Counted from the first letter of the stretch, positions 2,121 through 41,680 are shown. The stretch is DNA of 52,082 nucleotides from Verrucomicrobiota bacterium (GCA_016871475.1 VHDG01000001.1:1-52082), one strand, 5' to 3'. Notes: a model not told the origin generated them from the letters alone. Translations and numbers: made by a program.

Positions 2121-3563
2121 TCACGCGCGAGTGAGACGTTCGAAGAGGTTGTTGTGGCCGCCCACGTCGGTGAGGCGTTGCTGGCGGCCCTCGAAGAGGT
2201 AGGTCAATCGTTCGTGATCGAGGCCCAGGAACGTCAGCAGGGTGGCGTGCAGATCGTGGACGTGAACTTTGTCTTCCACCGCGCGGAATCCGAACTCGTC
2301 CGTGGCGCCGATGGCCTTGCCGCCGCGAATGCCGCCGCCAGCCAGCCATGTGGTGAAGCCGTAGGGGTTATGGTCGCGTCCCAAACTGCCCTGCATGACG
2401 GGTGTACGGCCGAATTCGCCCGTCCAGACGACGAGCGTGTTTTCCAGCAGGCCGCGTTGTTTGAGGTCGGTGAGCAACGCTGCGATCGGCTGATCCACGC
2501 GTTCCGCATTGGACTCATGGTTCTTCGCGCATTCGCCGTGGCCGTCCCAATCGTTGTTGTAGAGCTGCACGTAGCGCACGCCGCGTTCGACCATGCGACG
2601 GGCGAGGAGGCACATGCGCCCGAACTTCGCGGTCGGCCCCTTGTCCACTCCATACAACTCGCGTGTCGCGGCAGGTTCCTTCGAGATATCGATCAAGTCC
2701 GGCGCGGCGGTTTGCATGCGGAACGCCAGTTCGTAGTTCGCGAGACGCGCTTCGAGACGCGTGTCGTCGGGTCGCTCGGTGTGATGACGCTGGTTCCAGC
2801 GATTCACGTAATCAAGCACGCGGCGTTGCTCCTCCTTCTCGAAGGGCGGGGTGAGGTTCTGGATCGGCGCACCTTCGGTGCGGATCACCGTGCCTTGGTA
2901 GGCCGCGGGCAGGAAGCCCGATCCGAAACTTACCGCTGCGCCGGCGCGGAATCCGCCGTCGGACATCACCATATAGGAGGGCAGATTGTCGCTCAGCGAG
3001 CCGAGTCCGTACATCACCCATGCGCCGGTGCTGGGATACCCCAGCTTCGCCGTGCCGCAATGCAACAGCCCGAGCGCCGGACCGTGGATGAAAGATTCGT
3101 GATAGCACGAGCGAATGACGGCCAAGTCGTCAGCGTGCCGGGCGACGTGCCGAAACAGATCCGACACCTCCAACCCGGATTGGCCGTATCGCTGAAACTT
3201 GAACGGCGAGCCCATCAGCCTGCCATCGGTGGCCTTCATGAATTGCAGCATGAGGCCGTCACTCTTGAAGCTGTCCGGCAGCGGCTTGCCGTCGTACTTC
3301 TGCAACTCAGGCTTGGGATCGAAGGTGTCCATGTGGCTCGGCCCGCCGGTCATGAACAGGAAAATCACGTGCTGTGCCTTGCTTGCAAAGTGGGGCAACC
3401 TCACGGACAACGGATTCCGCGAGAGCGCGCCGGTCGCGTGCAGATCCTCCCGCATCAACAACGAACCCAAAGCCACGGCGCCGAAGCCGTGTGCGGATTT
3501 CTGCAAAAATTCGCGCCGGTTCAGGGCAACTGCGTGGCGTCCACAAGTGTTGCTATTTTTCAT
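2121..3563 (-). CDS. DUF1501 family protein (sulfatase/alkaline-phosphatase superfamily), pair 1
   Basis: 480 aa. N-terminal twin-arginine-like NRREFLQKSAHGFGAVAL. Family-typical blocks FMTGGPSHMDTFDPKP, WDGHG, GEFGRTP and GRDHNP. Starts 6 bp after the stop of the DUF1553 gene. Confidence 0.92.
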   Translation of the reverse strand: MKNSNTCGRHAVALNRREFLQKSAHGFGAVALGSLLMREDLHATGALSRNPLSVRLPHFASKAQHVIFLFMTGGPSHMDTFDPKPELQKYDGKPLPDSFKSDGLMLQFMKATDGRLMGSPFKFQRYGQSGLEVSDLFRHVARHADDLAVIRSCYHESFIHGPALGLLHCGTAKLGYPSTGAWVMYGLGSLSDNLPSYMVMSDGGFRAGAAVSFGSGFLPAAYQGTVIRTEGAPIQNLTPPFEKEEQRRVLDYVNRWNQRHHTERPDDTRLEARLANYELAFRMQTAAPDLIDISKEPAATRELYGVDKGPTAKFGRMCLLARRMVERGVRYVQLYNNDWDGHGECAKNHESNAERVDQPIAALLTDLKQRGLLENTLVVWTGEFGRTPVMQGSLGRDHNPYGFTTWLAGGGIRGGKAIGATDEFGFRAVEDKVHVHDLHATLLTFLGLDHERLTYLFEGRQQRLTDVGGHNNLFERLTRA

Positions 3564-3569
3564 GGCGTG

Positions 3570-6500
3570 CTAGTCGATGTAACTGAACTCATTCAGATTC
3601 AAGAGCGACAGACAAAACTTCGTCAGCGCGGCGGCTTGCTCTTTGGGCAAGCGTTTCAACGCGTCGGGCATGGAGCCGGTTTCCTTGGTAACGTCGGCGG
3701 TCTTCGTGAAGGCATCGATCATTTCCAGGGATTCGCTTTTCTCGGTGGGGGTCGGAGCGCGCCCCAGCGCCCAGCGCCAGGCGCGGTCGATCCACGCCAC
3801 CGGGTCCAAGGCAATCGTTCGCTCGACGCGAAGCGCCTTGCCTATCACGCCACCGCCATGGGCGAGCGACTCGCAGTACTGCCAGCCCGCTGGCGTTGGA
3901 TTCGCAGCAAGAGAAAACGCCGCGGCCAAGTCGTTTGTCTGAGTGGCCGACGTAATGGTGAAATTCACTCCGACGAAGTCGCCTTGGAGGATTTCCAGGC
4001 GAAACGAGTCACCGGGGGCGCACGGGATCGCTTCCAACGCCTCCGCGCCCGCGCGCCCGCGCGCGAACCCGAACGGCCTGGACGAAGTTCCCGACGCGTC
4101 GTCGATGCCGGCTTCGGTGAGCAGATCACGGTCGTTCTTCCACAGCTTCCAACTTCCGCCACGGCCCAACTGGCGAATGTTCCACACGCCGCCCGTGATC
4201 TTCACGGGGCCGCCTGAATAGTCTGGTGGCGCCTTCCAGAGCACGCTCGACATGCCGTGCGTGATAACCGTCCCGATCGGATCGTCGAAGCTCGGCGTCG
4301 AGTGACCGTTGTCGACGCGCTTGGCCCAGCCGGCGTGGACGCCGGACGCTTTGCCTTCCCAGCCGGTCTGGCCGGGGCCGAAGTCCGGCTCGTTCCAGCC
4401 TTGACCCGGTTTGCCGACGAGCCGGGCGGCGAATTCGCGCGCCTGTTGGCCGGCGACTTTGTTGTTCATGAACCACAACGCTTGCGGCGCAACCGTCGTC
4501 ACGTCCCGGGCGGCGGCGCTCACAGAGTTGACCGGCAGATCGAAGACATCGAAGAGCGGGAATCGAAAGTTGCGGCGCGTCAAGATGTACAGACCGCGGC
4601 GCGTGTGATCTTTCGGATCGGCGGACACGATCCAGTTGCCTGACGGCATCTCGTCGCCCGTGAGCGGCGGCGCAACGGGCCGTCCGCCCAACGCAAGGTT
4701 CAGCGTGCCGGCCACGGCGTGCAGGTTGTCCCAGATCGTTTCGGCTTCGAGGCGCCGGCGATTCGCGCGCCAGAGCAGGCGGTTCTCGGGATCAGCGCGC
4801 AAATTCGCCTCATGCGCGAAGCGGCTGTCCATTTGATAGGCGCTCGACCGCAGGATCAGCCGATGCAACGTCTTCAGGCTCCAGCCTTGCGTCATGAACT
4901 CGACGGCCAGCCAATCGAGCAGTTCCGGGTGCGAAGGCAGCTCGCCCATCTTGCCAAAATCGTTCAGGGTCGCGACGATCCCGCGCTCGAAATGCCAGTG
5001 CCAGACGCGATTCACCATCACTCGGGCCGTGAGTGGATGATTCGTCTTCGTAAGCCACAGCGCGAGCTGCTTACGGCTGCCGAACGGGCCGGGTAACGCG
5101 CCCTCCCACCGACTGTTCTCTTTCAGCACTGCAGGTAAATCTGCGCCCACCGGATCACGCGCGCGCTTGATCTCGCCGCGATTCAAGATGTGAATGACCG
5201 GCACCAGCTCGGGTCGTTCGTGGCCCAGGACGCTGACGGTCGGGATTTCCATCAAGCCGTCGAACGGGCCGTCGTGCGCCGTGGACTCGGGCATGGATAG
5301 GACCGCGTTGGCGATGCCTTCGAGCAGACGCTGTTTCTTCTGCTTCTCTTCGGGTGTGAGCTCGCGGTCTCTCGTGTGCGCTTCAAAGAGGCGATACGCC
5401 TTGCGCGCTTCACTGGCGGCGATGACGCGTGGGTAATGCTGCTTGAAGTCCGCAATGCCCATCGCCGGAATGATCGGCGCCTCGACTTCGCGGCTGCCGG
5501 CGAAGACCGCTTGCAGAGCGAAGTAATCACGCTGCGTGAAGGGATCGAACTTGTGATCGTGACAGCGCGCGCAGCCGAAGGTTAGCCCCATGAAGGCGCT
5601 GGCGGTCGTATCGACCCAGTCCGTGAGCCTTTCGTAAGCAAGCTTGGGCGCGTCCATGTTCGACTCATGCACTTGCGGACCGAGCGTGTAAAAGCCCGTG
5701 GCGACGCGGGCCTCGAAGTGCCGCTTCTTGGCCTCGGGCAGTTGATACGAACCGTCGAGATCGAGGTTGTCCGGCCACAGCTCGTCGCCGGCAATCTGTT
5801 CCTGGACGAACCGATCATACGGCTTGTCGTCGTTGAACGAGTTCACGACGTAATCGCGATAGCGCCACGCGTTGCGGTAATAGATATCGGTCTCGTATCC
5901 GCCGCTGTCGGCGTAGCGCGCGACATCGAGCCAGTGCCGGCCCCAACGTTCGCCGTAATGTTTGGAGGCGAGCAGCGAATCGATCAGCTTCGGCCATGCT
6001 TCCGGCGACGCATCGTTGACAAAGGCCTCGACCTGCTCCGGTGTCGGCGGCAGACCAAGCAAATCAAAGTACGCGCGGCGAACCAGCGTGCGTCGATCCG
6101 CGCGCGGGGCGTGCGACAACCCTTTTTCCTCCAGTTTCGCGAGAACAAAGGCATCGATCGGCGTCGTGACCCACTTTGAAGCTTTGACGGCGGGAACCGC
6201 CGGGCGTCGCGGCGGGACCAACGACCAAAACCGTTTCGCTTCCTCCGTGATGGGCGAACTAGTTAAAACGGCGGCGTCCCCGCGTCGCGGATCCGGGGCT
6301 CCCATCTTCACCCAGGCCTCGAAATCGGCGATCTGCTGTTCGGTGAGCTTTCCGCCGTTTTTCCTGGGCGGCATTCGCAGGTCTTCGTCCGTGTAGCGAA
6401 TGGCTTTGATGAGCAGGCTTTGCTCGGGTGAACCGGGCACAAGCGCCGTGCCCGAATCGCCGCCTTTCATCCAGCCGTCGCGCGAGTCGAGCCGCAGGGC

Positions 6501-6674
6501 GGCCTTGAGGCTCTTGGCTTCGGCGCTGTGACATTCGTAACAGCGCTCGATGAGGACCGGACGGATCCGATTCTCGAAGAAGTCCAAATTCTCGCGCGTG
6601 GGTTCGGCCGCGCCAGCGCAAGCCAGGGAAGCAATCCCCACCCAAAGCAGTACGAGGTTTTCGCGTCTGTTCAT
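3570..6674 (-). CDS. PSCyt1 (c-type haem CxxCH) + DUF1549 (PSCyt2) + DUF1553 (PSD1) protein carrying an inserted A-module, pair 1
   Basis: 1034 aa. Signal peptide [27 protein letters not shown] at nt 6528-6542. DUF1549 block [24 protein letters not shown] and DUF1553 block [14 protein letters not shown] ~195-aa insert lies between FAARLVGK and [12 protein letters not shown]; the two paralogs in this window have only 8-9 aa at that position. Confidence 0.92.
3831..4400 (-). repeat. A-module, circularly permuted copy inserted in the DUF1553 domain
   Basis: It starts [70 protein letters not shown] and ends with [27 protein letters not shown]. In every other copy that last segment is N-terminal. 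Confidence 0.8.
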
Positions 6675-6758
6675 GCTTCAATTCGATCGGTCGTAACTTT
6701 CATGAAAAGACCGTCCGAATGCGAGTTTTATTCGACCGTTTTGCCGTTCGTATGCCAT

Positions 6759-9700
6759 CTACCGGCGAATCAAGCGGTAAAACTTCGCCGCCATTGTTGG
6801 AGGAACCACGTGTGGATTGTTCGCGTTGGCCGAGTCGCTCCACGCTCCGGTCACAGCGTCCGCTTCTTGCAGCGTCCCGGCACCGGTCCACGAGATTTCG
6901 ACATTGGTTCCGGCGACTCGGATGGCCACGGTCAGCGGCGGATCAGGCGTGTAGGTCGCGATGCTGAATTGCACCGACACGAAGTCGCCTTGGAGAATCT
7001 CGAGCCGGAACGAATCACCCGCCGAGTAAGGGAGGTCCAGCAACGCCGCCGCGCCGCCGCTGCCGGAGTTCAAGCCCTTGGGCGACGTCGAGGTGCCGGA
7101 GCTGTCATTGATTGTGCCTTCGGACAACAGATTCGTTTCGTTCCCCCACAGCCGCCATAGTCCGCTGCGCCCGAATTGGCGGATGTTCCAGAATCCGCCG
7201 GCCAGACACGCGACGCCGCCGGGATCGTTCGGAGGCGCCGTCCACAACACACTGGTCGGCCCGTGCGTCAACACGCTGCCGATCGGGTCATCGTAGTTGG
7301 GAGTGGCGTTGCCGTTGTCGATGCGCTTGGCCCAACCCGCATGAGCGCCCGCGCGCGCGCCGACCCAGCCGGTCTGGCCCGCCCCGAAGTCGGGCTGGTT
7401 CCAATTCTCAACGGCCGCGCCCACAGGCCCGCCGCCGTTGCCGAGCGATTCGCTGTATTGCCAGCCGGTCGCCGTTGGATTCGCGTCGAGAGCAAAGTCA
7501 GCGACCAAGTCATGAACCTTTCTCGTTGTGAGCGCGAAGTCCACGGCGACAAAATCGCCGGCCAGAATCTCGAGGCGGAACGTATCGCCCGCCCCGTAGG
7601 CAATGCCGCGCAGCGCACTTTCACCGCCGCTGCCCGTCGCAAAACTCTTGGGCGCAGCGGAAGTGCCTTGCGAATCGTCGATTATGCCTTCGCTGATCAA
7701 GATCGTGTCGTTGTGCCACAACCGCCACGTGCCGGAGCGACCGAAGTGGCGGATATTCCACAAACCGCCGCTGATGTCGGCCACCCCGCCGCGATCATTG
7801 GCCGGGGCCTTCCAGAGAACGCTGGTGGCTCCGTGCGTCAGGATCGTGCCGGGCGGATCGTCGTAGCTCGGCGTTGCGTTGCCGTTGTCCACTCGCCGGG
7901 CCCAACCCGCATGAGCGCCCGCGCGCGCGCCGACCCAGCCGGGCTGGTTCGCGCCGAAGTCCGGCTGATTCCAGTTTTGAACCACAGGACCGACCGGCCC
8001 GCCGCCATTGCCGAGCGACTCGCTGTATTGCCAGCCATCGCTCGTCGGATTCGCGTCGAGTTTGAAGTCGGCCGCGAGGCTGTGCCGCGTGCCTTTGATG
8101 GCCGGCGGCGGCGCCTTCACGGTGAGCGTGGCCTCGTCGCTCAGCACGACGCCGACGGCATTGCTGACCACGGCGCGGTACTGGCCCGCTTGCGCGAAGG
8201 AGACACCCGTGAGCGTCAGGGTGGAACTCGTCTGGCCCGGCAAATCCGCGCCTTTAAATTGCCATTGAAAGCTGATCGGGGACGTGCCGAGGGCTCGGAT
8301 GCTGAACGTCGCGTCGCCGCCGGCGATCACCGTTTGATCGTCGGGATGGCGCGAAACGATCGGATCAGCCGGCACGGGATACGTGCTGATCCGCAGTCTC
8401 ACGCCCACGAAATCTTCTTCCAGCACTTCCAGCCGAAACGTATCGCCGGCTCGGTAACGAATGCCCCGCAACCCTCCCGGGCCACTGTCGCCTGCCGCCA
8501 GATTCAACGGATTGCCGGACGCGCCGGAATCGTCGTTGATCGCGCCGCTGGTGATCAGGATCGTGTCGTTCTTCCACAGCCGCCACGTGCCGCTGCGATT
8601 CAAGCGGCGCAAATTCCATAACCCGCCACTGAGGTCGGCCAGGCCGCCGGGGTCGTTGCCGGGCGCGCGCCACAGCAAGCTGGTTCTGCCGTGGGTCATG
8701 ATCGTGCCTTCCGGATCGTCCAGCGGAGGCGTGGGATTGCCGTTGTCAACGCGCCGCGCCCAACCGGCGTGCGCGCCCGGCGGAGACGCACCTTGCCAGC
8801 CGGGTTGACCGCCGCCGAAGTCCGGCTGATTCCAGTTTGGCGTGACGGGACCCACGATGCCGCCGCCGTCCGCCAGCGCGCGGCTGTACTGCCAGCCAGT
8901 CGAAGTGGGATTCGCCTCGAGGCTGAAATCGGCGCTGGCATCGTGCAGTTGCCGGGTGATGATAGTCATGTTGAGGGCGACGAAATCGTTCACGCCGACG
9001 CTTGCGACTTCGAAGCGAAAGGAATCTCCCGCCTGGTAAGGAATGTTGCGCAACGCATTCGGGCCGCTCGAGCCGTTCGCAAAATTCAGGGGCGAGCGTG
9101 AATCGCCGGAATTGTCATCGACCACTCCGTCGGTCAGGAGCTCCGTGTCATTTTTTAAGATGCGCCAGTTACTCGGCCGGTTGAGATGGCGGATGTTCCA
9201 AAGACTGCCGCGGATGTCCGCGACGCCGCCGCGGTCATCCGGGGGCGCCGTCCACATCACGCTGGTCGGCCCGTGCGTAATGATCGACCCGACCGGGTCG
9301 TCATACGTGGGCGTCGGACTGCCGTTATCGATGCGCTTGGCCCAACCCGCGTGGGCGCCGGCGCGCACGCCGACCCAACCCGGTTGGCTGGGGCCGAAGT
9401 CCGGTTGATTCCAATTCGGAACCACATTTCCGACCGGCCCGCCGCCGTTGGCGATCGATTCACTGTATTGCCAGCCGGTCGCCGTCGGATTCGCGTCGAG
9501 GCTGAAGTCGGCTGACAAATCATGACGCGCGCCGCTGACTGAGTCGGGCCGGGGCGTGACTTGAAGGTTCGCCGGCAGGCTCGTGCGCGAGCCGTTTCCG
9601 TTGCTCACCTGCACCGTGTAGGTGCCCGAGCGCTCGAACGCCACGTCGTTCAGCGCGAGCGACGCCCCGGTTTCACCGGCGATCTCGACGCCTTCGTAAA

Positions 9701-11390: not shown

Positions 11391-11473
11391 TGTTCAGTTT
11401 CGGTCGCCGTCGGGTGGGTCTCACCAGCGATGGCAACAAATCTTTTTTTCCCATACGGCGCTTCAGCTGCTTC

Positions 11474-14400
11474 TTAACGCTCTCTGAGCCGGAAGAAGCG
11501 AGTGGGACCGCTCAGGCTCTGTCCAACGTGGATCTCATTGCCCACTTGCGTTTGGGGTCCGCTCGCTCCGATCCAAGGGCCCTGGATGGCCGTGGCCGCT
11601 TCGAGAATGTGATTCGTGAACGGGGCGGCCCAACTCAGTTGGAGCGATAGCCCCTGCGCCCGCGCGATCAGCCTCGGACGCGGAACAACGGTGAACGTCG
11701 CCTCGGCAAGATCAGTCCAGTTTCCGTTCGCGAGCGTCTGGCCCACGGGAAGGATGGCGGCGGCCCTCAGTATTCCGGCCTGCTGAATGGAAATCGGTTC
11801 GGTGTAAAGTTGTCGACTCAGCGAAAGTCGCGGGTCAGAGCCGTCCAACGTGACGTAAGCGAGCCAGCCGGGTTGCGTGGTGAGGCTCACCGTGGTCCCC
11901 GGCTGCACTTCGCCGTTCGCCAGCGAGAGCGCGGGCGTCTTGTCCGGAGACGGCAGGCCCGTCGAAGCGAGCGCGAGGAAGTTCGAGAGAGAGCGGCGTT
12001 GGCTCGTCAACACGTTAGTGGCTTCGTTAATGCTGGTGCGGATCGTACTCCAACGAGCCAGGTCCGCCGTGCGGTCTGGCGTCATGAGCGTGAACAGTTC
12101 CCGGATGCGCGGAATGATGACCTCGAGCTTCATGACGTCGCGAACCATCTTGCGCAGGGTGAGCAGATAGATGCGGCGCAAGGTGGGATTCGTCGAGACC
12201 CGTTGATACAGCTTGCCGCGTTGCCACGCCGGATTGTCGCCGCCGCCGCCGTCGCCGTAGAGGGCGCGGATTTGGCCCACGCGCCCGAAGGTGAACCCGG
12301 AATCGAAGTCGTAGCCGAGCATCTTCCACTTGCCGCCCGGCTCGCCGGGAAGAAACAGGTAGTAGTTGTGGCCGGTGAAGTCATCGATGTTCATGCACAC
12401 GTTGAGCGCCCAGCGCTTGAACCATTGGTCCAGGTCCACGTGCGCATCGAGCCACGGCAGCAACTGGGCATCGGACATGTCGTTCAGCGCATCGACCAGT
12501 TCGCGCAGCGAGTCCGGCGGCTCGAGAGGACGCACCTTCTTGTTATACGCGCCCCAATAGTCGTAATCCGTGACGATCTGATTGTGGAACAGGTCGGAGT
12601 TCTTCCACTGCGCGGGCGTTTCGACCGTTCGGCCTTTGTACACCTCGCCGCCTTCATGGTGGCCGTGCTTGCCCAGCCAGCGTCCGGTCGGGCTTTCGAA
12701 GCCGATGTACACGCCCCAGAACGAGCCGTTGATGTGCAAACGCACCAGTTCGTGTTGCAAGTTATCAATGCCCGCTGAGTCAAACAGCTCGAAGGCGATC
12801 TTCTGCTCCAGCGGAATCGAGTACATCGTGTCGTAGGTGCGGTTGGTCTTGTAGAGATGGTCCTTGTTGAATTGGAATTTCCACGGACGCTTCGGATCGT
12901 CGCGCGAACGGCGCCCGCGATACCGCGCGCCCACGTGCGGATAGGCGATGTGGTCGATCACCAGCGAGCAATCGACGTAGTCGTCCGAGCGCGGATTGGC
13001 ATTGAGCCTGTTCAGATTCGCCGTCGGGATGAACAGGTGAAACAGCGTGCTGCGCGTATTGATCTCGCCGTTATAGTGGAAATAAGCCTGCGTGGGCGAT
13101 GGGTCGTCTGCGTAAGGAAACTGTGTCGTCACGCCGCGCGTGTCGGTGGCCACGACCTGGTAATGCACGAGTGTTTGGGACGCCCTGGCAGGAACCCAAA
13201 CGCCGAAGACACCATCGTTCGCCACACCGTCGCCGTGCAGGCCATCATCGAACATCTCGAGCCACGTCTCGTTCGTCGCGGCGTTCATCATGGTCTTAAG
13301 CTGGACCGACTCAAGCGGCGCTTCGCCTTGGACGCGGGCGGTGACCAACACGTCGTTCGTCGAGGCGGGCTTATCGGGAAAGTGCGTTAAGCCATCGACC
13401 AACGGTGGCAATGGCTCGGCTCCCACCGAATTGAGCCGGCCCGGGGTGCCGCAGCCGATGAACCCGGCCACCGGCGGCGCGATGATGGGCGGCGCCACCG
13501 ATTCGCCAAACGCCAGCGAAATATCGTAGCCGACGTAATCGTCGGAGCGATTCGGCGCCAGCGGCGTTGCGCCGAATTTGAGGACATCACCGGCCACGAC
13601 GTTCACGATCAACGCGCTCGGCCCCTTGCTTCCCGTTTCGAATGACAGCGGTGAGCGCGAGTTGATGGTGAGGTTGGTGTTGAATAAATCGCCGGCGGTG
13701 ATTTCGGTGTTGTTGAGTTTGATGTACCAGTGCTGACTGCGTCCGATGCGGCGCAGGAGCCAAACACCGCCCGAGATGGTCACGCGTTGGCTGGAGGATG
13801 CGGTCCACCAAACTTCGGACGGACCGTACGACATGACCGAGCCTGTCGGGAAATCATACTCCGGACGTGGGGCGCCGGGCGCTTTCGACGAGCCGGTGCT
13901 TTTGCACCAGCCCGGAGTGCCGGTCGTGCCGCCAGCGGTCCACGCCGGCTGATTCGTGCCGAGATCGGCCGTGCGCCAGCGGGCAACGCGCGCGGTGATG
14001 ACCGTGCCGGTCCGATGCCGGTAACTCCATCCGTAGCTGGGGTTCAGCCAGTCGCTCCAGTCTTTCGCCAAGTTGTGAATTCCGCCGGAGGCCGCTATGA
14101 GCGGCGAGAACCCCGCTCCGGCAAATCCAATTGTAACCGCGTCGGCTCCCTTCTGAAAACTCGCGCGGCACGTGATCGTGTAACTCTGGCCGATCGTGAT
14201 ACCGGGGACGTTCGCCACACCGACGTAGTTGGACTCGCCATCGCCCGCACCTTGAGCAATCACCAGAAAACTCCCCCTGCCATCGAACGCTGCGTCGTCC
14301 GTTCGGCGTGACGTCGAATGGTTCCCGACCTTGGTCCAGCCGGAGTCGTCCGGCTCGAAGGAACCATTCGCCAGCAGGTTGGCGCCGCCGACTGCCGGAC

Positions 14401-20800: not shown

Positions 20801-21150
20801 GGTATCCCCGCGTCGTAAACCGCCGCAAGCGTGAAAGCGTGAATTGAACGCTTGAACGTCCTGGGGTGCGGCTAAAAGTCCGGGCCAGTACTCGCGCAGA
20901 CTTTTTCAGTCAACGGTGTCGCGGACTTCCAATCCGCCAGCGTCTGGTACGAACCCAAAAAGGCTAGAAGTCTATCAAACGTCCCTGAACTCGAGTTAGC
21001 AACTGCACGAAGGAATCCTTGGTATCGAAGACCAAGTGCCGATTACGATTACGAGGGCGGTCACACCGGGAAAATGTGAGATGCGCCCCCGGAATGCGAA
21101 TCGCTGAAATTGCATTGCAGCTTCGGGACGTCTTGCTAGAAAGTCACCCC

Positions 21151-22188: not shown

Positions 22189-22198
22189 ACCCACTCGC

Positions 22199-23134: not shown

Positions 23135-23140
23135 CCGCCT

Positions 23141-29535: not shown

Positions 29536-31677
29536 ATGAATTCCGCCGGCTGTCAGGCTGAACTTTCGGGAGTGTTGATGGCGACTTGGCTGGGGTTCGG
29601 GTTGTGGGCCGAAGCGGGGACGCATTGGGCGTTTGAGCAGGTGCGGCGCCCGTCTGTGCCGAGGGTTGAGAACGCGGCGTGGCTGGCTACGCCCGTCGAC
29701 GCGTTCATCCTGGCGCAACAGGAAAAGGCGCATCTGAGTCCTTCGCAGCCTGCAAAGCCGGCTGTGTTGCTGCGTCGGCTCTACCTCGACCTCGTAGGAT
29801 TTCCTCCTTCGGCCGAAGCGGTGGAACGGTTCGAGCATGACGTTCGTCCCGTGGCCTACGCAGAAGCGGTCGAAGGTCTTTTGGCGTCGCCCCACTTCGG
29901 CGAGCGATGGGGAAGACATTGGCTCGACGTGGCACGTTATGCCGACAGTGGAGGGTATGAGGCCGATCTCCCGCGAACTGCCTGGCGTTACCGCGACTAT
30001 GTCATCGGGGCGCTGAATCAGAACCTTCCCTTCGATCAATTCGTGGAGGAGCAGCTGGCGGGGGATCTGCTTCCGGGAGCGACCGAGGAGCAACGCATCG
30101 CAACGGCTTTCCACGCCAACAACATGTTGGATGGCAACCTCCCCTGGGAGGCCAATATCGATCGCGTCAGCACGACGGCCACTGTCTTCCTTGGACTCAC
30201 CGTGGGTTGCGCGCAGTGCCACGACCACAAGACGGATCCTATTTCGACGAGAGAGTTCTACCAGCTCTACGCGTTTTTCAACGAGGCGGCGAATGACGAG
30301 CTGAGCCTGGCGACGCCGGCGGATCGGGCTCGACGCGACTCCGCGCAGCTGAAGATCAAGCAAGCCGAGGAGGAACTGGAGGATCATCGCCGGTCGCGGC
30401 AGTCCGAAATCGCCGCCTGGGCGACTCAACTTACTTCCGACCAACGGAGGAATCTCCCCGCTTCGGTGCGGAGCGCGCTGGAGAGTCCGGCGGCCACCCG
30501 AACCCGGGAGCAAGTTCAGGCCATTGAGGAAGCGTTCTGGGCACAGGATACGCGGGCCAAAGATTTAAGCCTGAGTCTCGAGCGGCTTAAAGCGGCTCAG
30601 CCTCAACTGCCGGTGATTCCGGTACTTTCCCACCGTACGAACGAAACCCGCATGTTCCTTCGCGGGAATCCCGAAACGCTGGGAGCCCCAGTCCAGGCCG
30701 GATTCCCCGCTGCATTATCTCCGCCCGACATCGGCGCTGGCCACTCTCTTACCCGGCGGGATCTCGCTCGATGGCTGATGTCCCCCCAGAATCCATTAAC
30801 GGCGCGCGTCACGGTCAACCGAATCTGGCAACAGTATTTCGGCCGAGGTCTGGTCGAGACAGAGAATGATTTCGGAATTCAAACACCTCGACCACTCCAT
30901 CAACCCCTTCTCGATTGGCTCGCTGCCGAGTTCATGTCCAGCGGCTGGAACGTGAAGCATATTCACCGTCTGCTCGTATCTTCCTCCACCTACCGGCAGT
31001 CGTCCCGCCGGCGTTCCGAGTTGGATCGCCACGACCCTGGAAATACACTCGTGGCGAGGCAACATCGTTCGCGTCTGGAGGCCGAGACGATCCGGGACAG
31101 TGCCCTCGTTGTCAGCGGGTTGATCGAGCATCGGATCGGAGGTCCCAGCGTGTTTCCTCACCAACCAGAGGGAGTTCTGGACTTTCGCGCCACCAAAGCG
31201 GAATGGGTGAAGAGTCAGGGAGCAGATCAATATCGTCGTGGCCTCTACACCTGGTTTTGGCGCTTGACCCCATACCCCTTCCTCACCCTGTTTGACGCCC
31301 CCGACGCTTTCACGACGCAGACGCAGCGAACGCGCTCTAACACCCCCACGCAGGCACTTACTCTCCTCAATGACCCTGTGTTCCTGGAAGCGGCTCAGGC
31401 CCTCGCTGCAAGAGTCCTCGAAGATGGAGGGGTGTCCACCTCCGATCGCATCCGATACGCCATCAGGCGCTGTTTGGGACGCTCCCCCACTTCCGACGAG
31501 ATCGAGACTCTGGAAGGCTTGTTGGAAGAACAGACCGCCGATTTCCGCAGCCGACCAGGAGAAGCAGCGCGCTTTCTTGGGCGTGAGTTCCCCGAATCCG
31601 AGGGAATCGAACGAGCGGCGTGGACGGTGGTCAGTCGAGCCCTGCTGAACCTGGATGAATTCATCAGCCGTGAATGA
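29536..31677 (+). CDS. DUF1549 + DUF1553 protein, pair 3 (no cytochrome or LamG domain)
   Basis: 713 aa from the ATG at 29536; an alternative ATG lies at 29578. [40 protein letters not shown] and GCAQCHDHKTDPI. It ends ..LLNLDEFISRE, like its two paralogs. Confidence 0.9.
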   Translation: MNSAGCQAELSGVLMATWLGFGLWAEAGTHWAFEQVRRPSVPRVENAAWLATPVDAFILAQQEKAHLSPSQPAKPAVLLRRLYLDLVGFPPSAEAVERFEHDVRPVAYAEAVEGLLASPHFGERWGRHWLDVARYADSGGYEADLPRTAWRYRDYVIGALNQNLPFDQFVEEQLAGDLLPGATEEQRIATAFHANNMLDGNLPWEANIDRVSTTATVFLGLTVGCAQCHDHKTDPISTREFYQLYAFFNEAANDELSLATPADRARRDSAQLKIKQAEEELEDHRRSRQSEIAAWATQLTSDQRRNLPASVRSALESPAATRTREQVQAIEEAFWAQDTRAKDLSLSLERLKAAQPQLPVIPVLSHRTNETRMFLRGNPETLGAPVQAGFPAALSPPDIGAGHSLTRRDLARWLMSPQNPLTARVTVNRIWQQYFGRGLVETENDFGIQTPRPLHQPLLDWLAAEFMSSGWNVKHIHRLLVSSSTYRQSSRRRSELDRHDPGNTLVARQHRSRLEAETIRDSALVVSGLIEHRIGGPSVFPHQPEGVLDFRATKAEWVKSQGADQYRRGLYTWFWRLTPYPFLTLFDAPDAFTTQTQRTRSNTPTQALTLLNDPVFLEAAQALAARVLEDGGVSTSDRIRYAIRRCLGRSPTSDEIETLEGLLEEQTADFRSRPGEAARFLGREFPESEGIERAAWTVVSRALLNLDEFISRE

Positions 31678-33149
31678 ACCCCATGCAGATCACCCAACCC
31701 GTTCAGCTTGCCTCTAATGCCCGCACGGTGCCGGGATTCGGCTCGCGGCGAGCCTTCCTCGGAGCGTGCGGCACGGCCCTCTTCAACGCTGCAGTGGTCC
31801 CCCTCCTCGCAGGTTCTCCCACAGCTGGCGATTCCGCTGGCCGTGTTGCCATATCGCCTTCCCGCCTTGGCCTCCCCCACTTCGTCCCTCGGGCAAAGAA
31901 CGTGATCTTTCTCTTCATGATCGGAGCGCCTAGCCAGCTCGACTTGTTTGATCACAAGCCGCTGCTGAACCAGCGCGAAGGCGAACCCTTGCCTGACTCG
32001 TTGCTGCGGAGGGCCAAATTCGCTCAGATCAAAGAGAAGCAGCCGAAGCTCTGGGGCACGCGTTGGGCTTTCGCGCAGCACGGGCAGTGCGGGGCGCAGG
32101 TGAGCGAACTCCTGCCTCATACGGCTTCCATCGTCGACCAGATCGCCTTCCTCAAGACCGTCAAAGCGGACGACGTGAACCATTCGTTCGGTGAGTTGCA
32201 GATGAACACGGGATGGAGGCAGTTCGGGAGGCCTAGCTTGGGCAGTTGGGTTGCCTACGGATTGGGAACGGAGTCCAAGGATCTGCCAGGCTTTGTTGTG
32301 CTCAGATCGGGGATGCACCCCCGAAGCAAGGGCGCGAACTACGGCAGCGCATTCCTGCCGTCGGCTTTTCAGGGTGTCCCCTTGCGGGAGAAAGGGGATG
32401 CCATTCTCAACCTGGGCATCCCTGATGGACTGGGCTTCAGCGGGCAGGGTCGGACGGTCGCCGCGATCAACCGACTCAACCAGATCCGCCACGAAGAAAC
32501 GGGCGATCCCGAGATCCTGGCTCGCATCTCCGCCTACGAACTGGCCTTTCGCATGCAGGCCTCGGCCCCCGGGTTGTTGGATCTCCGGGGTGAAAGTCCG
32601 AGCACGTTCTCAGCCTACGGATGTGACCCCGTGAAACCCTCGTTTGCCAGGAACTGCCTGCTGGCCCGGCGGTTGATCGAGCGAGGCGTCAGGTTCGTGC
32701 AGCTCTTCCATGGGGATTGGGATCATCATTCCAATATCGAGCAAGGTCTCCCTTCCATGTGTCGCAGTGTGGACCAGGCCTCAGCGGCCTTGGTCAAGGA
32801 CCTCGCCCACCGAGGATTACTCGACGACACTCTGGTGATCTGGGGTGGAGAATTTGGACGTGGAGCCGTCGCGCAAGTGGAATCCAACAAGCATGTTGGA
32901 CGCGATCATCACATCGATGCATTCACCCTTTGGATGGCTGGCGGCGGTGTTCGTCCTGGATTCACACTAGGCGAGACCGACGAGTTCGGATACCTGCCGC
33001 TTCGCAATTCCGTTCACATCCACGATCTCCATGCCACGATTCTTCACTTGCTCGGACTGGACCACGAGAGGTTGACATTCCGCTTCGCTGGCCGGGATTT
33101 TAGATTGACAGATGTGGCTGGCGACGTCGTCACCCCGTTGCTGCTCTGA
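31674..33149 (+). CDS. DUF1501 family protein, pair 3
   Basis: 491 aa. The ATG overlaps the upstream TGA (ATGA at 31674-31677). Twin-arginine-like GSRRAFLGACG. Blocks MIGAPSQLDLFDHKP, WDHHS, GEFGRGA and GRDHH. Confidence 0.92.
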   Translation: MNPMQITQPVQLASNARTVPGFGSRRAFLGACGTALFNAAVVPLLAGSPTAGDSAGRVAISPSRLGLPHFVPRAKNVIFLFMIGAPSQLDLFDHKPLLNQREGEPLPDSLLRRAKFAQIKEKQPKLWGTRWAFAQHGQCGAQVSELLPHTASIVDQIAFLKTVKADDVNHSFGELQMNTGWRQFGRPSLGSWVAYGLGTESKDLPGFVVLRSGMHPRSKGANYGSAFLPSAFQGVPLREKGDAILNLGIPDGLGFSGQGRTVAAINRLNQIRHEETGDPEILARISAYELAFRMQASAPGLLDLRGESPSTFSAYGCDPVKPSFARNCLLARRLIERGVRFVQLFHGDWDHHSNIEQGLPSMCRSVDQASAALVKDLAHRGLLDDTLVIWGGEFGRGAVAQVESNKHVGRDHHIDAFTLWMAGGGVRPGFTLGETDEFGYLPLRNSVHIHDLHATILHLLGLDHERLTFRFAGRDFRLTDVAGDVVTPLLL

Positions 33150-33414
33150 AAACGGATCACACCCTCCGGCCTGGCCGCGCCACAATACTTTCCCCCTTAA
33201 GACACAGGACAGACCCTGCACTCTGTTCACTTCGTTTTGTTACTAAGAATCACTTTTGGGTTGACCAGAGTTCTGGTCCATGCTATTCACTCACTCAATC
33301 GCCCCTCTCCCGAGCTCTTTTCGCGCAGGCCCCTGCGATCCTGTGTCGCCAGTCTGGGAATGCCTTATCGGTCGGGAAGGGGACAGACCGCTCAGGTCGA
33401 TAACGCACAATCAG

Positions 33415-36400
33415 ATGAAAACATCCCAGCGACTGTTAGTTCTTTTCTTGATGGGCTTCCCCTTCACTTCGGGCTTGCTTCATGCGCAACAGGTGTGGAA
33501 TTGGGCTCTCGACTACGTTCCCAACGTTGTTCCTCCACGGGAGATCGGGACCGAGGGCGCCTGGTCCTATGGGTACGATGCCAACACGTCGGATGAATTG
33601 AGCGCGCCCTTTGAGTTCGTGCCGTTTCCGATCTTTGGCAACCACATATGGGGCGGGGGCGATTACCATTTCAGTGGCCCGAATCCGGCGCTTCTTGCCA
33701 AACAGGCGAATGGAATGATCATCCACACTGCGCCGAATGCGAAACAACCTGTCGTTGTGCGGTGGACTGCGACACGGGCGATGACGGTGAACATCACGGG
33801 TCGCGCGTACAAGTTTGCGTTCGACGAGAACAACGGCCGCACGCAGGAGTTTTATGTCCGCAAGAATGGTGAATCTCCGCTGACATTTGGCACGGTATCC
33901 GATGCCACTCTCGACTCGGGGGCTCCTTTGGCATTCGCCGCCACCACCACCGTTCAGCTCGGAGACACAATCGATACCTTCGCCGTGAGAACGGCTGACA
34001 AGATTCAAGGGTTCCTGGGGATCGAGCTTGTGCTCCATGAGGTATTGGCTGGAGCTCCCACCATCACTGTTCACCCTCAGGCGGCGGACGCACTTCCTGG
34101 GAGCACCGCGAGCCTCTCGGTGACAGCGTCGGGCGACGCACCCTTGGCTTATCAGTGGCATCGCAATGGAAACGACATCGCGGGAGCCGATGGAGCCACC
34201 CTCATGCTCCCGGCGGCAACGGTCACCGACGCCGGGGTATATGGCGTCAGGGTGAGCAACGGTCTTGGGACCGCGGAGAGCCTGACGGTTGTTGTGGAGG
34301 TGAATCCGCCTCCCTCAACCACTCGACACGACCTCCGCGATGATTTCCGGCTTTCCTCGAACCCTACCGACCGGGGCTGGCAGTATAGTCGCGCGCTCCG
34401 AGACGGGGGCGGTCGGGTTCGACCGATCACTCCCAATTGGAACGAGCCGGACTTCGGATCCGGACAGCTCGGATGGGAAGGTCCGGGGAACGCACCCCAT
34501 GCCGGGTGGGCGAGGCGCATCGACAATGGCAATCCGACTCCCACCTACGACGACCCGGTGGGAGCCATTCTCACTCATGGCCCCACGAGTGCTGTTTGGA
34601 AATCCCCGCCCGGCGATCCCAACCGTTTTGCGAATATCCGTGGCGACATCTACAACATCCGCAAGTTTGGGCGATCGGGTACCTGGAGGATTTTCAAGAA
34701 CTCGACTGAGATCACTTCTGGCACCGTGGATGACAACAGCGGGACCTCGACTGCTCCCAAGAGCTTCGTTCACGGCTCAGCAGGGCCGAGTGTTTTAGAA
34801 GGGATTCCCTACCAGCCCGGCGATGCGTTCCGGCTTGAGATTCTTCACGATGATTTCGCGGCGGTGAACTTCACTATTGAAACGACGGCATCCCCACCCG
34901 ATCCGTTGATCACCGTGCAACCTCAGGGTCGGGTGGTCTCTCCGGGAACTGAGGTCACTCTGCGTGTTGTTGCCGAAGGCACTGCACCCCTGACGTACCA
35001 GTGGAAGCGAAATGGGGTCGACCTTCCGGGACGAACCGCCGACACGCTGGTGATTCCCTTTGCCACGGAGACCGCGGATTACCAAGTGCTGGTGACGAGC
35101 GCCAAGGGCAGTCGACTGAGCAGTTCGGCGACTGTGGTAGTTGCCGACCGCTCGCCCGGCGAACCTTGGGACCTGGTTGCTGATTTCCAGCCCGGCAAAG
35201 TTCCCGCTGTGGACGTGGGTCCCGATGGCTCGTGGTCGTACGGTTACGATGCCCGGACAAACGATGATGTGCTGGCGCCCCTTCAGTTCGTCCCCATGCC
35301 ATTGTACGCGCAGCACGTCATTGGTAACGCAGACTACCACATTAGCGCGCCGAACCCCGGGAGCATCGCTCCACGAGGCAGTGGCTTGTATATTCACACC
35401 TCTGATCAGCCAAACCAACAAGCCATCATTCTTCGATGGACTGCCCGACGCCCTATGCGAATCCACATCATGGGGAGCGCGTACAAGTATGAAGTCGAGG
35501 GTAATGGCCGAACTCAGGATTTCTTTCTCCGGAAGAACAGCGGCCCTCTCCTTGCCTCAGGCACGGTGTCGGATGACACGGTCCGGAACCTTGGGACTGA
35601 ACTGCCCATCGCTGCTGAGAATATTTCGATGTTAGCCGGCGACTTCATAGACCTCTTCGTTTCCCGGCATCCGGGAAGCGTGCAAGGATTTTTGGGCGTG
35701 GAGCTCGTCATCAGTGAGGTCCTGTCGGATGTCGGATTGGACTTTGCCTTGGACGCCAACCCGACAGCCACTGGGTGGCAGTACAGCGAGTCGCTCGGCA
35801 ACGGGGGAGGGCCTGTGGGTGGTGCCGTACCGAACTGGAATCAACCCGACTTCGGCCCGGGTCAGACTGGATGGCAAGGGGTTCGGGCAGGGGCTCACGC
35901 AGGGTGGGCGAGGCGCATCGACAATGGAAACGGCACCCCGACATACGATGATCCTGTCGACACCGTGCTGACCCATGGGCCAACGAGTGTGAAGTGGACC
36001 GCCCCGGTGGGTTCAGGCCCAGGCCACCTGGCCATTCGGGGAGGGCTGTGGAACATCCGACACTTCGGTCGGAGCGGAACGTGGAAGCTCTGGAAGAACG
36101 ACACCCAATTGATTAGCGAAGGCGCCATTGATGACGCCAACGGCACTTCGTTAAGTCCGAGGAGCTACGCTTCTGGCAGTGGAGGTGCGGCTGGTTTGCA
36201 AAACATCCCCTATCAGGACGGGGATTCCATTCGGCTCGAAGTTCTCAACGGTGACTTCGTCGGCGTCCGGTTATCAATCAGCACCTACAAGATCGTAGTG
36301 GATCCGCCCACCATCACGCTTCAACCCCGCAGCGTCGTGGCTTTGGTTGGCGCCGCCGCGGTCTATCGGGTCGAGGCCAGCGGGCCGCCACCACTGGCAT

Positions 36401-37269
36401 ACCAATGGAAATTCAATGACACCGACATCCCAGGTGCGACAACCTCAATGCTTCAACTTGGCAATGTCACCGCTTCCTCCGCGGGTACGTATCACGTGGT
36501 GGTTTCCAACCCAGGTGGCTCCGTCGAAAGCGCGAGAGTGACGCTAACCGTCGACGACACATTCTCGGGTCCAGCCCGTCAACAGTCATCCGATGCCGAC
36601 GGATTGCTGGTTCTGGAAGCTGAGAACTTCGATCGTTCCACCCCGGCCGGCCGCTGGGAGTGGATTCCCATCGCTGGCGGGGTCGAGGCGACGCCGAACG
36701 AAGGTCGGAACGTGAATGTCAACATAGCCGATAGCCCACGATTGGACTACAAGGTCCTCTTTGTTCGGCCCGGCATCTACTCCGTTTGGCTGCGCGGCCT
36801 AGGTGACAGCGCTCCGGGACCCAGTGCAAATGACTCCGTCAATCTGGGCATTGATTTCTCTCTCCCGAATTCCAGCGATCGCATTACAGGTTTCCCCGAG
36901 GGAGCCGGTCGAGTCTGGAGCCGATCCACTCTCGACAACGTGCCCGCTACGCTCGAAGTGGTGTCGGGCGGCCTTCACGTTCTCAACGTGTGGATGCGGG
37001 AGGATGGATTTGTCCTGGATAAGATCCTGATCACCAGCAACCCGAACCTCATTCCCACTGGAGATGGCCCACCGGAGAGCGGGACAGCTGGAGTGGTGCT
37101 CAAGGGAACGCTTGCCCCAAATGGAAGACTGATCCTCACGTGGAACGGGACGGCCCGATTGGAAGAAGCCAATGGTTTGGCCGGCCCGTGGTCGGAGATC
37201 AACGGCGCCTCCAGCCCTCACGATGTCCCCGTCCTAGGCGCAGCGAGGTTCTTCCGACTCCGAGAATGA
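33415..37269 (+). CDS. Secreted repeat protein: B-Ig-A-Ig-B-A-Ig-CBM-like-Cterm(FFRL)
   Basis: 1284 aa from the ATG at 33415 (MKTSQRLLVLFLMGFPFTSGLLHA signal). ORF-track start 33280 looks over-extended. It has two A-modules, two B-modules and three Ig-like domains (PLAYQW/PLTYQW). A CBM-like beta-sandwich spans ~36577-37065 (LLVLEAENF..WMREDGFVLDKILIT). It ends ..AARFFRLRE. Confidence 0.9.
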   Translation: MKTSQRLLVLFLMGFPFTSGLLHAQQVWNWALDYVPNVVPPREIGTEGAWSYGYDANTSDELSAPFEFVPFPIFGNHIWGGGDYHFSGPNPALLAKQANGMIIHTAPNAKQPVVVRWTATRAMTVNITGRAYKFAFDENNGRTQEFYVRKNGESPLTFGTVSDATLDSGAPLAFAATTTVQLGDTIDTFAVRTADKIQGFLGIELVLHEVLAGAPTITVHPQAADALPGSTASLSVTASGDAPLAYQWHRNGNDIAGADGATLMLPAATVTDAGVYGVRVSNGLGTAESLTVVVEVNPPPSTTRHDLRDDFRLSSNPTDRGWQYSRALRDGGGRVRPITPNWNEPDFGSGQLGWEGPGNAPHAGWARRIDNGNPTPTYDDPVGAILTHGPTSAVWKSPPGDPNRFANIRGDIYNIRKFGRSGTWRIFKNSTEITSGTVDDNSGTSTAPKSFVHGSAGPSVLEGIPYQPGDAFRLEILHDDFAAVNFTIETTASPPDPLITVQPQGRVVSPGTEVTLRVVAEGTAPLTYQWKRNGVDLPGRTADTLVIPFATETADYQVLVTSAKGSRLSSSATVVVADRSPGEPWDLVADFQPGKVPAVDVGPDGSWSYGYDARTNDDVLAPLQFVPMPLYAQHVIGNADYHISAPNPGSIAPRGSGLYIHTSDQPNQQAIILRWTARRPMRIHIMGSAYKYEVEGNGRTQDFFLRKNSGPLLASGTVSDDTVRNLGTELPIAAENISMLAGDFIDLFVSRHPGSVQGFLGVELVISEVLSDVGLDFALDANPTATGWQYSESLGNGGGPVGGAVPNWNQPDFGPGQTGWQGVRAGAHAGWARRIDNGNGTPTYDDPVDTVLTHGPTSVKWTAPVGSGPGHLAIRGGLWNIRHFGRSGTWKLWKNDTQLISEGAIDDANGTSLSPRSYASGSGGAAGLQNIPYQDGDSIRLEVLNGDFVGVRLSISTYKIVVDPPTITLQPRSVVALVGAAAVYRVEASGPPPLAYQWKFNDTDIPGATTSMLQLGNVTASSAGTYHVVVSNPGGSVESARVTLTVDDTFSGPARQQSSDADGLLVLEAENFDRSTPAGRWEWIPIAGGVEATPNEGRNVNVNIADSPRLDYKVLFVRPGIYSVWLRGLGDSAPGPSANDSVNLGIDFSLPNSSDRITGFPEGAGRVWSRSTLDNVPATLEVVSGGLHVLNVWMREDGFVLDKILITSNPNLIPTGDGPPESGTAGVVLKGTLAPNGRLILTWNGTARLEEANGLAGPWSEINGASSPHDVPVLGAARFFRLRE
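33490..34044 (+). repeat. B-module copy B1
   Basis: GAWSYGYDANTSDELSAPFEFVPFP..GGGDYHFSGPNP..IIHTAP..VVVRWTATRAMTVNITGRAYKF..GRTQEFYVRKNG..GTVSD..GDTIDTFAV..IQGFLGIELVLHEV. It aligns along its whole length with B2. Confidence 0.75.
34321..34884 (+). repeat. A-module copy A7
   Basis: DFRLSSNPTDRGWQYSRA..NWNEPDFGSGQLGW..HAGWARRIDNGNPTPTYDDPVG..THG..GDIYNIRKFGRSGTWRIFKNS..GDAFRLEILHDDFAAVNFTIET. Confidence 0.85.
35164..35721 (+). repeat. B-module copy B2
   Basis: GSWSYGYDARTNDDVLAPLQFVPMP..GNADYHISAPNP..YIHTSD..AIILRWTARRPMRIHIMGSAYKY..GRTQDFFLRKNS..GTVSD..GDFIDLFVS..VQGFLGVELVISEV. Confidence 0.75.
35722..36285 (+). repeat. A-module copy A8
   Basis: [108 protein letters not shown]. Confidence 0.85.
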
Positions 37270-41678: not shown

Positions 41679-41680
41679 CC

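Follow-up and report, generated by a model that had tools for sequence, protein, structure and literature searches.

This work concerns a 52,082-bp contig window from a Verrucomicrobiota bacterium (GCA_016871475.1 VHDG01000001.1:1-52082; the whole stretch is hereafter called the window) and, within it, a gene pair, pair 1, encoding a PSCyt2/PSD1 (DUF1549/DUF1553) protein, PSCyt_1, and a DUF1501 protein. Comparison with homologous sequences places pair 1 firmly in a widespread subfamily from metagenome-assembled genomes (MAGs) of Verrucomicrobiota and Planctomycetota, in which a circularly permuted copy of a small β-sandwich module is lodged in a loop of the PSD1 domain. Free copies of the module occur in large proteins encoded nearby, and the region as a whole is best described, from its gene and protein sequences, as a lineage-specific elaboration of the known PSCyt2/PSD1 and DUF1501 two-gene system. 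This placement draws on domain composition, export motifs, the fusion itself, gene order and fold class, all established below. The conserved fusion is the strongest evidence, of a sequence kind, for a functional tie between module and pair.

Module and pair proteins of the window were studied with Pfam domain calls throughout, and start codons were fixed from the gene calls of Logan assembly SRR7990526, which contains identical DNA. Three PSCyt2/PSD1 and DUF1501 pairs, which an earlier note on this DNA had located at 6674-2121, 20800-15947 and 29536-33149, were confirmed by Pfam (E 1e-71 to 1e-151). PSCyt2 (PF07583) and PSD1 (PF07587) score above the gathering threshold in all three PSCyt proteins (E 1e-71 to 1e-97) and each PSCyt gene is followed, after 6 bp in pair 1, 21 bp in pair 2 and about 5 bp in pair 3, by a co-oriented DUF1501 (PF07394) gene. 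A CxxCH haem motif, recognised by sequence pattern, is present in each of the three PSCyt2 domains. The DUF1501 proteins all carry twin-arginine (Tat-type) motifs, NRREFL in DUF1501_1 and SRRDLL and SRRAFL in the others, while the remaining components have hydrophobic N-termini which we take to be signal peptides; these features, read from the sequences, bear out the export signals previously assigned to the components. The parts of the window that concern pair 1 and the module are as follows.

584..2071, minus strand: MFS sugar-type transporter, 49 bp after DUF1501_1 (Pfam Sugar_tr and MFS_1, E 1e-32)
2121..3563, minus strand: DUF1501_1 of pair 1, with Tat motif, alkaline-phosphatase superfamily (PF07394, E 6.5e-151)
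3570..6674, minus strand: PSCyt_1 of pair 1, 1034 amino acids (aa), PSCyt1-PSCyt2-PSD1 by Pfam, with CxxCH at aa 45 and 368
3831..4418, minus strand: permuted module insert in the PSD1 loop of PSCyt_1, aa 753-948 (profile hidden Markov model, HMM)
6759..11390, minus strand: Mod6, 1543 aa, with signal peptide, six A modules, three Ig-like domains and a C-terminal F-Y-R-L domain (HMM; Pfam Ig_3)
10701-11261, 9822-10412, 8955-9527, 8382-8945, 7524-8084 and 6954-7517, minus strand: the Mod6 modules (HMM, E 1e-80 to 1e-97)
11474..15643, minus strand: CotH_1 (Pfam, BLASTP, HMM)
about 13508-14080, minus strand: divergent module of CotH_1 (BLASTP, HMM)
33280-37269, plus strand: ABmod, 1329 aa, also delimited as 33451..37269 (Pfam, HMM, hhalign)
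33487-34047 and 35164-35724, plus strand: B modules of ABmod (hhalign)
34324-34884 and 35725-36285, plus strand: A modules of ABmod (HMM)

BLASTP, together with an HMM derived from the copies themselves, placed 12 instances of the module, about 190 aa long, in four proteins encoded close together: six copies lie in Mod6, two A and two B forms in ABmod, and one each in CotH_1 and PSCyt_1. The B form is a distant homologue of A (hhalign probability 97%, E 1.6e-11), and the CotH_1 copy, 33% identical to one of the Mod6 copies (E 3e-23, BLASTP), sits on a distant branch of the module tree, in which inserted and free A modules form sister clades. ABmod, identical in sequence to P0010, has the domain order B-Ig-A-Ig-B-A-Ig, followed by a GH115_C-like domain and a C-terminal F-F-R-L domain. 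CotH_1 combines two LTD domains, the divergent module, a choice-of-anchor X domain, a CotH kinase-like domain, CHB_HEX_C and a C-terminal F-F-R-L domain. The HMM found no copy in PSCyt_2, PSCyt_3 or CotH_2, even with filters off. The module is covered by no model of Pfam or NCBIfam and matches none of the Pfam models for carbohydrate-binding modules (CBMs); the six Mod6 copies do give weak matches to DUF1775 (YcnI-like), whose sum of 29.6 bits exceeds the cut-off of 25, with no single stretch passing.

An AlphaFold2 model of the free module is a confidently predicted β-sandwich (pLDDT 92, pTM 0.90). Its best neighbours in the Protein Data Bank (PDB), found with Foldseek, are almost all CBMs (CBM61, CBM6 and CBM35), at weak similarity (E about 1e-3, TM 0.3-0.5), and a sequence search of the PDB with the module gave nothing useful. 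Residues conserved alike in free and inserted copies include NP..GW.Y, Q.GW, HAGW, D.P.G..THG, W.(I/L)R...R.G.W, GD..R.E and DFV. The conserved His, His and Asp of the Mod6 modules, in HAGW, THG and D.P, could form a metal site.

An exhaustive profile search, covering 1.84 billion cluster representatives, yielded 571 representative module proteins at E<=1e-3, of which 29 reached E<=1e-30. Among the best 150 listed, many are small proteins that combine a signal peptide and a single module with a PEP-CTERM anchor, and the family therefore looks like a surface-displayed binding domain. Given the fold neighbours of the modelled structure, these PEP-CTERM relatives and the accessory domains published for PSCyt proteins, the module is most likely a glycan-binding domain, one that lies outside every catalogued CBM family and may act like a CBM. 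An initial impression that the module was nearly unique, from 7 fragments in a word-indexed search with a single module and 10 with a 24-sequence profile, was dismissed as a word-index artefact once the exhaustive search and a search with whole PSCyt_1 were available.

The copy in PSCyt_1 (a protein identical to P0159, 'MAG: DUF1549 domain-containing protein') begins with HMM positions 31-187 and ends with positions 2-35, which is a circular permutation. Aligned with its paralogues, the segment is a clean insertion of about 195-200 aa at a site where PSCyt_2 and PSCyt_3 have a loop of about 4 residues. In the AlphaFold2 model of full-length PSCyt_1 (pLDDT 82.5), this loop joins two helices of an otherwise helical domain and the remainder of the protein is likewise helical, while the succession of β-strands in the insert is that of the free module. 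PDB neighbours of the insert in this model are of the PA14/Epa type; Foldseek matched the insert alone, and neither it nor a PDB sequence search found a solved relative of the helical PSCyt2/PSD1 body. The closest match of the insert within the window, at 57% identity, runs from the end of Mod6 copy 5 into the start of copy 6, a phase that would be expected if the insert had been taken, out of register, from a tandem array.

The spread of the insertion was surveyed by a search with whole PSCyt_1, which listed 119 closest homologues besides the query. The same permuted insert was present at the same site in 68 of these 119, several of them annotated as Planctomycetota, Planctomyces or Pirellula MAGs. 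Outside the insert, homologues lacking it are about as similar to PSCyt_1 as those that carry it. On a neighbour-joining tree of the non-insert columns, drawn without support values, insert-bearing sequences form one large group with a few insert-less ones nested inside; from this distribution and grouping, the fusion is an old and successful architecture.

Gene neighbourhoods in relatives provide further evidence. Loci (numbered L001 onwards) were reached in two independent ways, through the module and through the PSCyt_1 protein, and all were annotated with the same profiles; pattern scans for module loci produced one locus from genomes and four from metagenomes. In the clade closest to the window, where PSCyt_1 is 64-65% identical, DUF1501_1 72-77% and the MFS transporter 67-68%, the gene order is alcohol dehydrogenase (ADH), a slot of variable content, PSCyt_1, DUF1501_1 and MFS. 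The contents of the slot are given below.

Window: CotH_1 and Mod6 with six modules; pair 2 lies upstream in place of ADH
L001: orthologues of CotH_1 and of Mod6, the latter with six modules
L009: an N-methyl protein, a 120-aa gene, an ABmod-like gene, a Mod6-like gene with four modules and a 480-aa protein without assignment
L011: one gene, for a two-module protein of 591 aa
L008: no gene in the slot
L016: no gene in the slot; ADH runs 4 bp into the start of the PSCyt gene
P0163 contig: a 645-aa gene, truncated and of unreadable content

L003 is a shorter version of the L009 arrangement. Counting the window, four of the six closest-clade genomes with sequence here have two to seven free modules directly upstream of pair 1. 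The slot proteins start with hydrophobic N-termini, read as signal peptides, contain Ig-like spacers and end in an F(F/Y)R(L/I) domain. In L001, the Mod6 orthologue occupies the same position at 68-69% identity, and upstream of it come the CotH_1 orthologue (65%) and, before that, an alcohol dehydrogenase gene. The six copies of the Mod6 array are one-to-one orthologous between L001 and the window, which rules out concerted evolution of the array.

Downstream, the conservation is tighter. DUF1501_1 orthologues (67-77% identity) follow every insert-bearing PSCyt gene that was compared for identity and has a sequenced 3' side, a strong DUF1501 match lies at the same 3' position in L016-L018, and wherever the 3' side is on a sequenced contig the DUF1501 gene starts within a few bases of the insert-bearing PSCyt gene. 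Judged by these comparisons, each insert-bearing PSCyt gene with such a 3' side has its own co-evolving DUF1501 partner. MFS orthologues (67-68%) come after the pair-1 orthologues of L008, L009 and L011 and one is also present in L016. Just upstream of the pair-1 orthologues, genes for the cytoplasmic enzymes Ldh_2, BKACE, AP_endonuc_2 and Zn-ADH run in the same direction in L008 (5958-9987), L011 (1359-5300) and L016 (175-4061), with the first three lying upstream of ADH. A GntR/FCD regulator gene immediately precedes the pair in L007 and L017, and in L011 one heads the array. Such enzymes and regulators, recognised by homology, suggest organic- or sugar-acid catabolism.

One way to account for this association is history rather than function: the insert segment would have been duplicated locally, or copied out of phase from an array, and synteny inertia in a hotspot of abundant paralogues would have kept the genes together. 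The phase of the insert, that of a unit cut from a tandem array, fits such an origin, as do the sister relationship of inserted and free A modules and the restriction of all filled slots to one clade. Moreover, pairs are numerous in such genomes (PMC3542564), and several lie side by side in L008 and L018. However, slot contents differ (two modules; four plus an ABmod-like gene; six plus a CotH protein with one) while location and orientation are kept at 64-69% identity, and the one-to-one orthology of the array copies indicates that they are maintained rather than decaying. A/B-module proteins also accompany the unrelated pair 3, in another gene order in L004, and at the nucleotide level L001 and the window give no blastn match at E<=1e-10. 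We therefore regard a purely historical adjacency as improbable.

The case that module and pair are associated beyond chance rests, in sequence comparisons, on the conserved fusion, the reciprocal recovery of loci by module and PSCyt searches, the variable slot at a fixed position and orientation, and the one-to-one orthology of the array; its weak point is the single clade from which all filled slots come. Whether the module is specifically linked to such pairs was the question that the earlier note had held to be decisive, and the fusion in 68 of 119 homologues, together with the slot genes of the window, L001, L009 and L011, supports an affirmative answer.

Beyond the closest clade, the picture is plainer. 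Six distant loci (L007, L010, L012/13, L014/15, L017 and L018), at 54-62% identity, contain an insert-bearing pair and have no free-module gene within the fetched flanks, so that the giant module proteins are to be seen as an add-on to the pair. In L007 (GCA_036704275.1), the insert-bearing pair at 7594-12296 is split by several frameshifts and an intact copy lies on another contig (L010); the split copy is either a pseudogene or an assembly error.

These distant loci bear on a different view of the module, as a protein-protein docking domain whose copies would bind each other or a common partner, tethering the pair to a scaffold in the manner of cohesin and dockerin. Tandem arrays, Ig-like spacers and a common C-terminal domain do resemble scaffold proteins, the insert is located in a loop between two helices, and in L005 genes for cohesin- and dockerin-domain proteins lie between a pair-3 orthologue and an ABmod-like gene. 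In the six loci just described, however, the insert must serve some purpose independent of free-module genes; many of the 150 top-ranked family members listed are single-module PEP-CTERM proteins with no obvious partner, and the closest folds are sugar-binding domains. Docking is, accordingly, an explanation to which we assign a low probability.

We favour a model in which module and pair share a ligand. The module would bind this ligand, probably a glycan. Multi-module proteins would be exported and displayed outside the cell, where they could capture a polymer multivalently, and PSCyt_1 would hold the same ligand, or fragments of it, in the periplasm through its own module, presenting it to the haem-motif body and to the DUF1501 partner. 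DUF1501_1, predicted to be Tat-exported and a member of the alkaline-phosphatase superfamily, would modify the ligand; the MFS transporter would import the product, and the adjacent dehydrogenases and aldolases would catabolise it. Taken as a whole, this chain from capture to catabolism is put forward tentatively, with a likelihood that we place slightly under even. That the permuted module, the slot surface proteins, DUF1501, MFS and the flanking catabolic genes constitute one pathway of substrate capture and uptake is more doubtful.

Several observations weigh against this model. In six distant loci the pair does without free-module genes within the fetched flanks, and L002 has a five-module gene in a housekeeping context, where the 7.4 and 4.3 kb on its two sides contain no pair. 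A single clade, at about 64-65% identity, accounts for every filled slot, and the slots are, for that reason, not independent observations. The modelled fold resembles CBMs weakly (E about 1e-3, TM 0.3-0.5), and PSCyt2/PSD1 and DUF1501 are without a solved relative hinting at chemistry, PDB sequence searches with DUF1501 having given nothing useful. He et al. (PMC5615132) predict that PSCyt proteins are not extracellular, in which case the two tiers would meet the ligand in different compartments. Finally, ligand, localisation and activity are predictions for every component.

The nature of DUF1501 deserves comment here, since it had been taken for a sulfatase-superfamily enzyme. Its resemblance to sulfatases is confined to the C-terminal region around an invariant GRDH (profile E 0.005), with a weak PF01663 match. 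The C/S-x-P-x-R motif is not conserved, the few pattern matches falling at non-equivalent positions and DUF1501_3 having none, which rules out a canonical formylglycine sulfatase. An alkaline-phosphatase-superfamily protein of unknown chemistry is the better description on these sequence features.

Pairs 2 and 3 and the second CotH protein differ from pair 1 in how they relate to the module. Their positions in the window, and those of the domain shared by the giant proteins, are as follows.

15947..17440, minus strand: DUF1501_2 of pair 2 (PF07394, E 4.5e-129)
17462..20800, minus strand: PSCyt_2 of pair 2, PSCyt2-PSD1 with a LamG-like N-terminal region, start codon uncertain (Pfam)
21019..23929, plus strand: genes for a cyclase (PF04199), a BD-FAE esterase and an HpcH aldolase, divergent from pair 2 (Pfam)
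24025..29475, minus strand: CotH_2, four LTD domains, CotH and a C-terminal G-F-Y-R-I-L domain (Pfam; 1816 aa in the Logan calls)
29536..31677, plus strand: PSCyt_3 of pair 3, a minimal PSCyt2-PSD1 without accessory domain (Pfam; gene call)
31683..33149, plus strand: DUF1501_3 of pair 3 (PF07394, E 4e-146)
6759-6940, 11474-11650 and 24025-24200, minus strand, and 37084-37266, plus strand: F(F/Y)R(L/I) domain

The Logan gene calls agree with the coordinates of pair 3 and of CotH_2. In PSCyt_2 the first 65 or so residues are unlike a signal peptide, which is why its start codon is uncertain, and aa 85-370 (19690-20545, minus strand) resemble LamG/concanavalin-like domains (Laminin_G_3, E 0.0015, under the curated cut-off); a PSCyt protein of L008 carries Laminin_G_3. 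Within the window, the DUF1501 copies are 39-43% identical to one another and the PSCyt copies 33-42% (BLASTP), values which mark the three pairs, by sequence divergence, as old paralogues. Recent tandem duplication is ruled out, the paralogues being 33-43% identical as against 54-80% for orthologues elsewhere.

Orthologues of pair 2 (PSCyt_2 57-63% in L008, L009 and L011; DUF1501_2 77-80% in L008 and L011) occur near pair 1 in all three of these loci. They are divergent from a PF04199 cyclase gene in L008 (17605-22130) and L009 (17432-22727), as in the window (20800/21019), and a BD-FAE esterase often accompanies this cyclase. None of the pair-2 orthologues found adjoins a CotH gene. Gene order thus points to pair 2 being an independent neighbour, with its adjacency to CotH_1 specific to this contig.

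For pair 3, orthologues were found in L004 and L005 (PSCyt_3 54-55%; DUF1501_3 64.5% in L004). In L004 the pair lies directly downstream of a protein with three modules and a GH115_C-like domain, and cyclase and HpcH genes follow; in L005 it is 7 kb from an ABmod-like gene, with the cohesin/dockerin-domain proteins between them (6590-8866, minus strand). A link between pair 3 and the module is plausible from these two relatives, where a module protein is beside or near the orthologue, and weaker than that of pair 1. The proposal that each pair has a module-bearing partner is consequently borne out for pair 1, reasonable for pair 3 and not upheld for pair 2.

The CotH assignments are secure at the family level (PF08757, E 8e-31 and 1.5e-23). 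In CotH_1, NIDDFTGHNY and YDFD align with NFDGFVHNY and WDYD of the Bacillus cereus CotH structure 5JD9. CotH genes are absent from L008, L009, L011 and L016, and CotH_2 has no match in any fetched locus, the pair-3 loci L004 and L005 included. The common C-terminal domain of about 50-60 aa, ending in F(F/Y)R(L/I), is present in all four giants and in no other open reading frame (ORF) of at least 150 aa. It has no Pfam match, and the window proteins lack PEP-CTERM (PF07589), which was found in the distant module homologues P0021, P0035 and P0063; distant homologues carry either PEP-CTERM or a ...FYR(L/I/V) tail at the same C-terminal position, and this positional correspondence suggests that the domain is an undescribed sorting or anchoring signal.

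Taken to its fullest form, the proposal of the earlier note would unite the three pairs, the two LTD-CotH giants and the module proteins in a single extracytoplasmic machine, in which CotH kinase and DUF1501 would act on a module-bound substrate. A span of 35 kb does contain all of the genes, seven of which run in one direction with short gaps; the values of 6, 21, 83, 84, 49 and 303 bp given for these gaps were correct from the ORF coordinates. A single transcript from 20800 to 584 is possible on this layout, and a scan of the window with promoter and terminator consensus sequences gave no more matches than shuffled sequence. CotH_1 also has both a module and kinase-like motifs, the four giants share their C-terminal domain, and orthologues of pair 2 lie close to those of pair 1 in L008, L009 and L011. 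The idea of one recurring design nevertheless breaks down for pair 2, whose adjacency to CotH_1 is missing in L001 and which is kept instead with its divergent cyclase gene. It fails likewise for CotH_2, which lacks the module and is not retained beside pair-3 orthologues, and it has to contend with the loci devoid of CotH genes, the distant branching of the CotH_1 module and a lack of evidence for DUF1501 acting on phosphoproteins. A machine of this scope seems very unlikely, and we return to the shared-ligand model centred on pair 1.

The rest of the window contains a few features of separate interest. At 37314-39304 (minus strand), a 394-aa protein with an FG-GAP repeat and Peptidase_S74 (endosialidase chaperone) is encoded beside a 234-aa protein without Pfam match; the 232-234-aa genes of L008 and L011 gave no tblastn match to the latter at E<=1e-15. 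Downstream of an H+-pyrophosphatase gene, 42943-50610 (plus strand) constitutes a second small catabolic cluster, with an HpcH-aldolase/cupin fusion, a 2-hydroxyacid dehydrogenase, an aldehyde dehydrogenase and an SBF-family transporter. Further ORFs without Pfam match lie at 47208-49433, 41666-42466 and 21-503 (all plus strand); the first, of 741 aa, probably begins further downstream than called, since it shares about 260 bp with the 3' end of the aldehyde dehydrogenase gene. Long antisense ORFs (2154-4217, 17750-19975) are expected because G+C is about 60%. The window contains no Rfam family and no tRNA.

Pairs of PSCyt2/PSD1 and DUF1501 genes are among the most expanded families of Planctomycetota and Verrucomicrobiota. 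The module offers a compact, confidently modelled and uncatalogued domain that can be expressed and screened for ligands, and its circularly permuted form inside PSD1 is an example of recombination in a large subfamily. The array of catabolic enzymes, slot, pair and MFS gene, and the GntR/FCD regulators that three relatives encode close to the pair, suggest metabolites to test. If the shared-ligand model is true, it would support the view that such pairs process specific substrates in the periplasm and owe their specificity to exchangeable binding domains. If, beyond that, all the parts belong to one pathway of capture and uptake, no PSCyt/DUF1501 pair before pair 1 would have had a recognisable element for ligand binding and a downstream route that can be traced.

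How much of this is new depends on comparison with known systems. The claim that the region represents an undescribed system does not hold, since a genetic module of DUF1501 and PSCyt/PSD1, with carbohydrate-binding domains on PSCyt, was described by Kamneva et al. in 2012 (PMC3542564) and by He et al. in 2017 (PMC5615132). These papers document PSCyt proteins with Laminin_G_3, CBM_6, PA14 and F5_F8_type_C, state that the function of the pair is unknown and, in He et al., trace the domains to the R. baltica survey. That system has identical Pfam domains, gene order, near-abutting genes, the Tat motif on DUF1501, a signal peptide and CxxCH on PSCyt, many paralogues and optional carbohydrate-binding domains; our three pairs show every testable defining feature of the 2012 module and are therefore members. 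They differ from it, as far as the available text goes, in that the accessory domain of pair 1 has no Pfam or NCBIfam model, is permuted and lies inside PSD1 rather than at the N-terminus or between PSCyt2 and PSD1, and in having separate genes for secreted free-module proteins, which are not reported there. What is new is the domain family, the permuted insertion that defines a large PSD1 subfamily, and the accompanying free-module genes.

Among binding domains, CBM6, CBM35, CBM61 and PA14 are β-sandwiches of like size, are the best Foldseek neighbours and occur in tandem or multidomain secreted proteins, whereas the module matches no CBM family in Pfam and reaches a TM of 0.3-0.5. Exosortase substrates of the PEP-CTERM type are represented by many of the best-scoring module relatives, with a signal peptide, one module and PEP-CTERM implying surface display, although the window proteins end with the different domain of about 50-60 aa and its terminal F(F/Y)R(L/I). 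The CotH kinases of Bacillus subtilis and B. cereus (5JD9) share PF08757 and the motifs D..HNY and (W/Y)D(Y/F)D; here, in contrast to the spore-coat proteins, the domain is fused to lamin-tail domains, the module and a C-terminal sorting-like domain in a non-sporulating phylum. Lastly, the polysaccharide utilisation loci of Bacteroidota resemble, in logic alone, the scheme that we propose, with a surface binder, a periplasmic step, a transporter and catabolic genes, as well as a GntR-type regulator nearby in relatives; the core described here has neither SusC/SusD nor a glycoside hydrolase.

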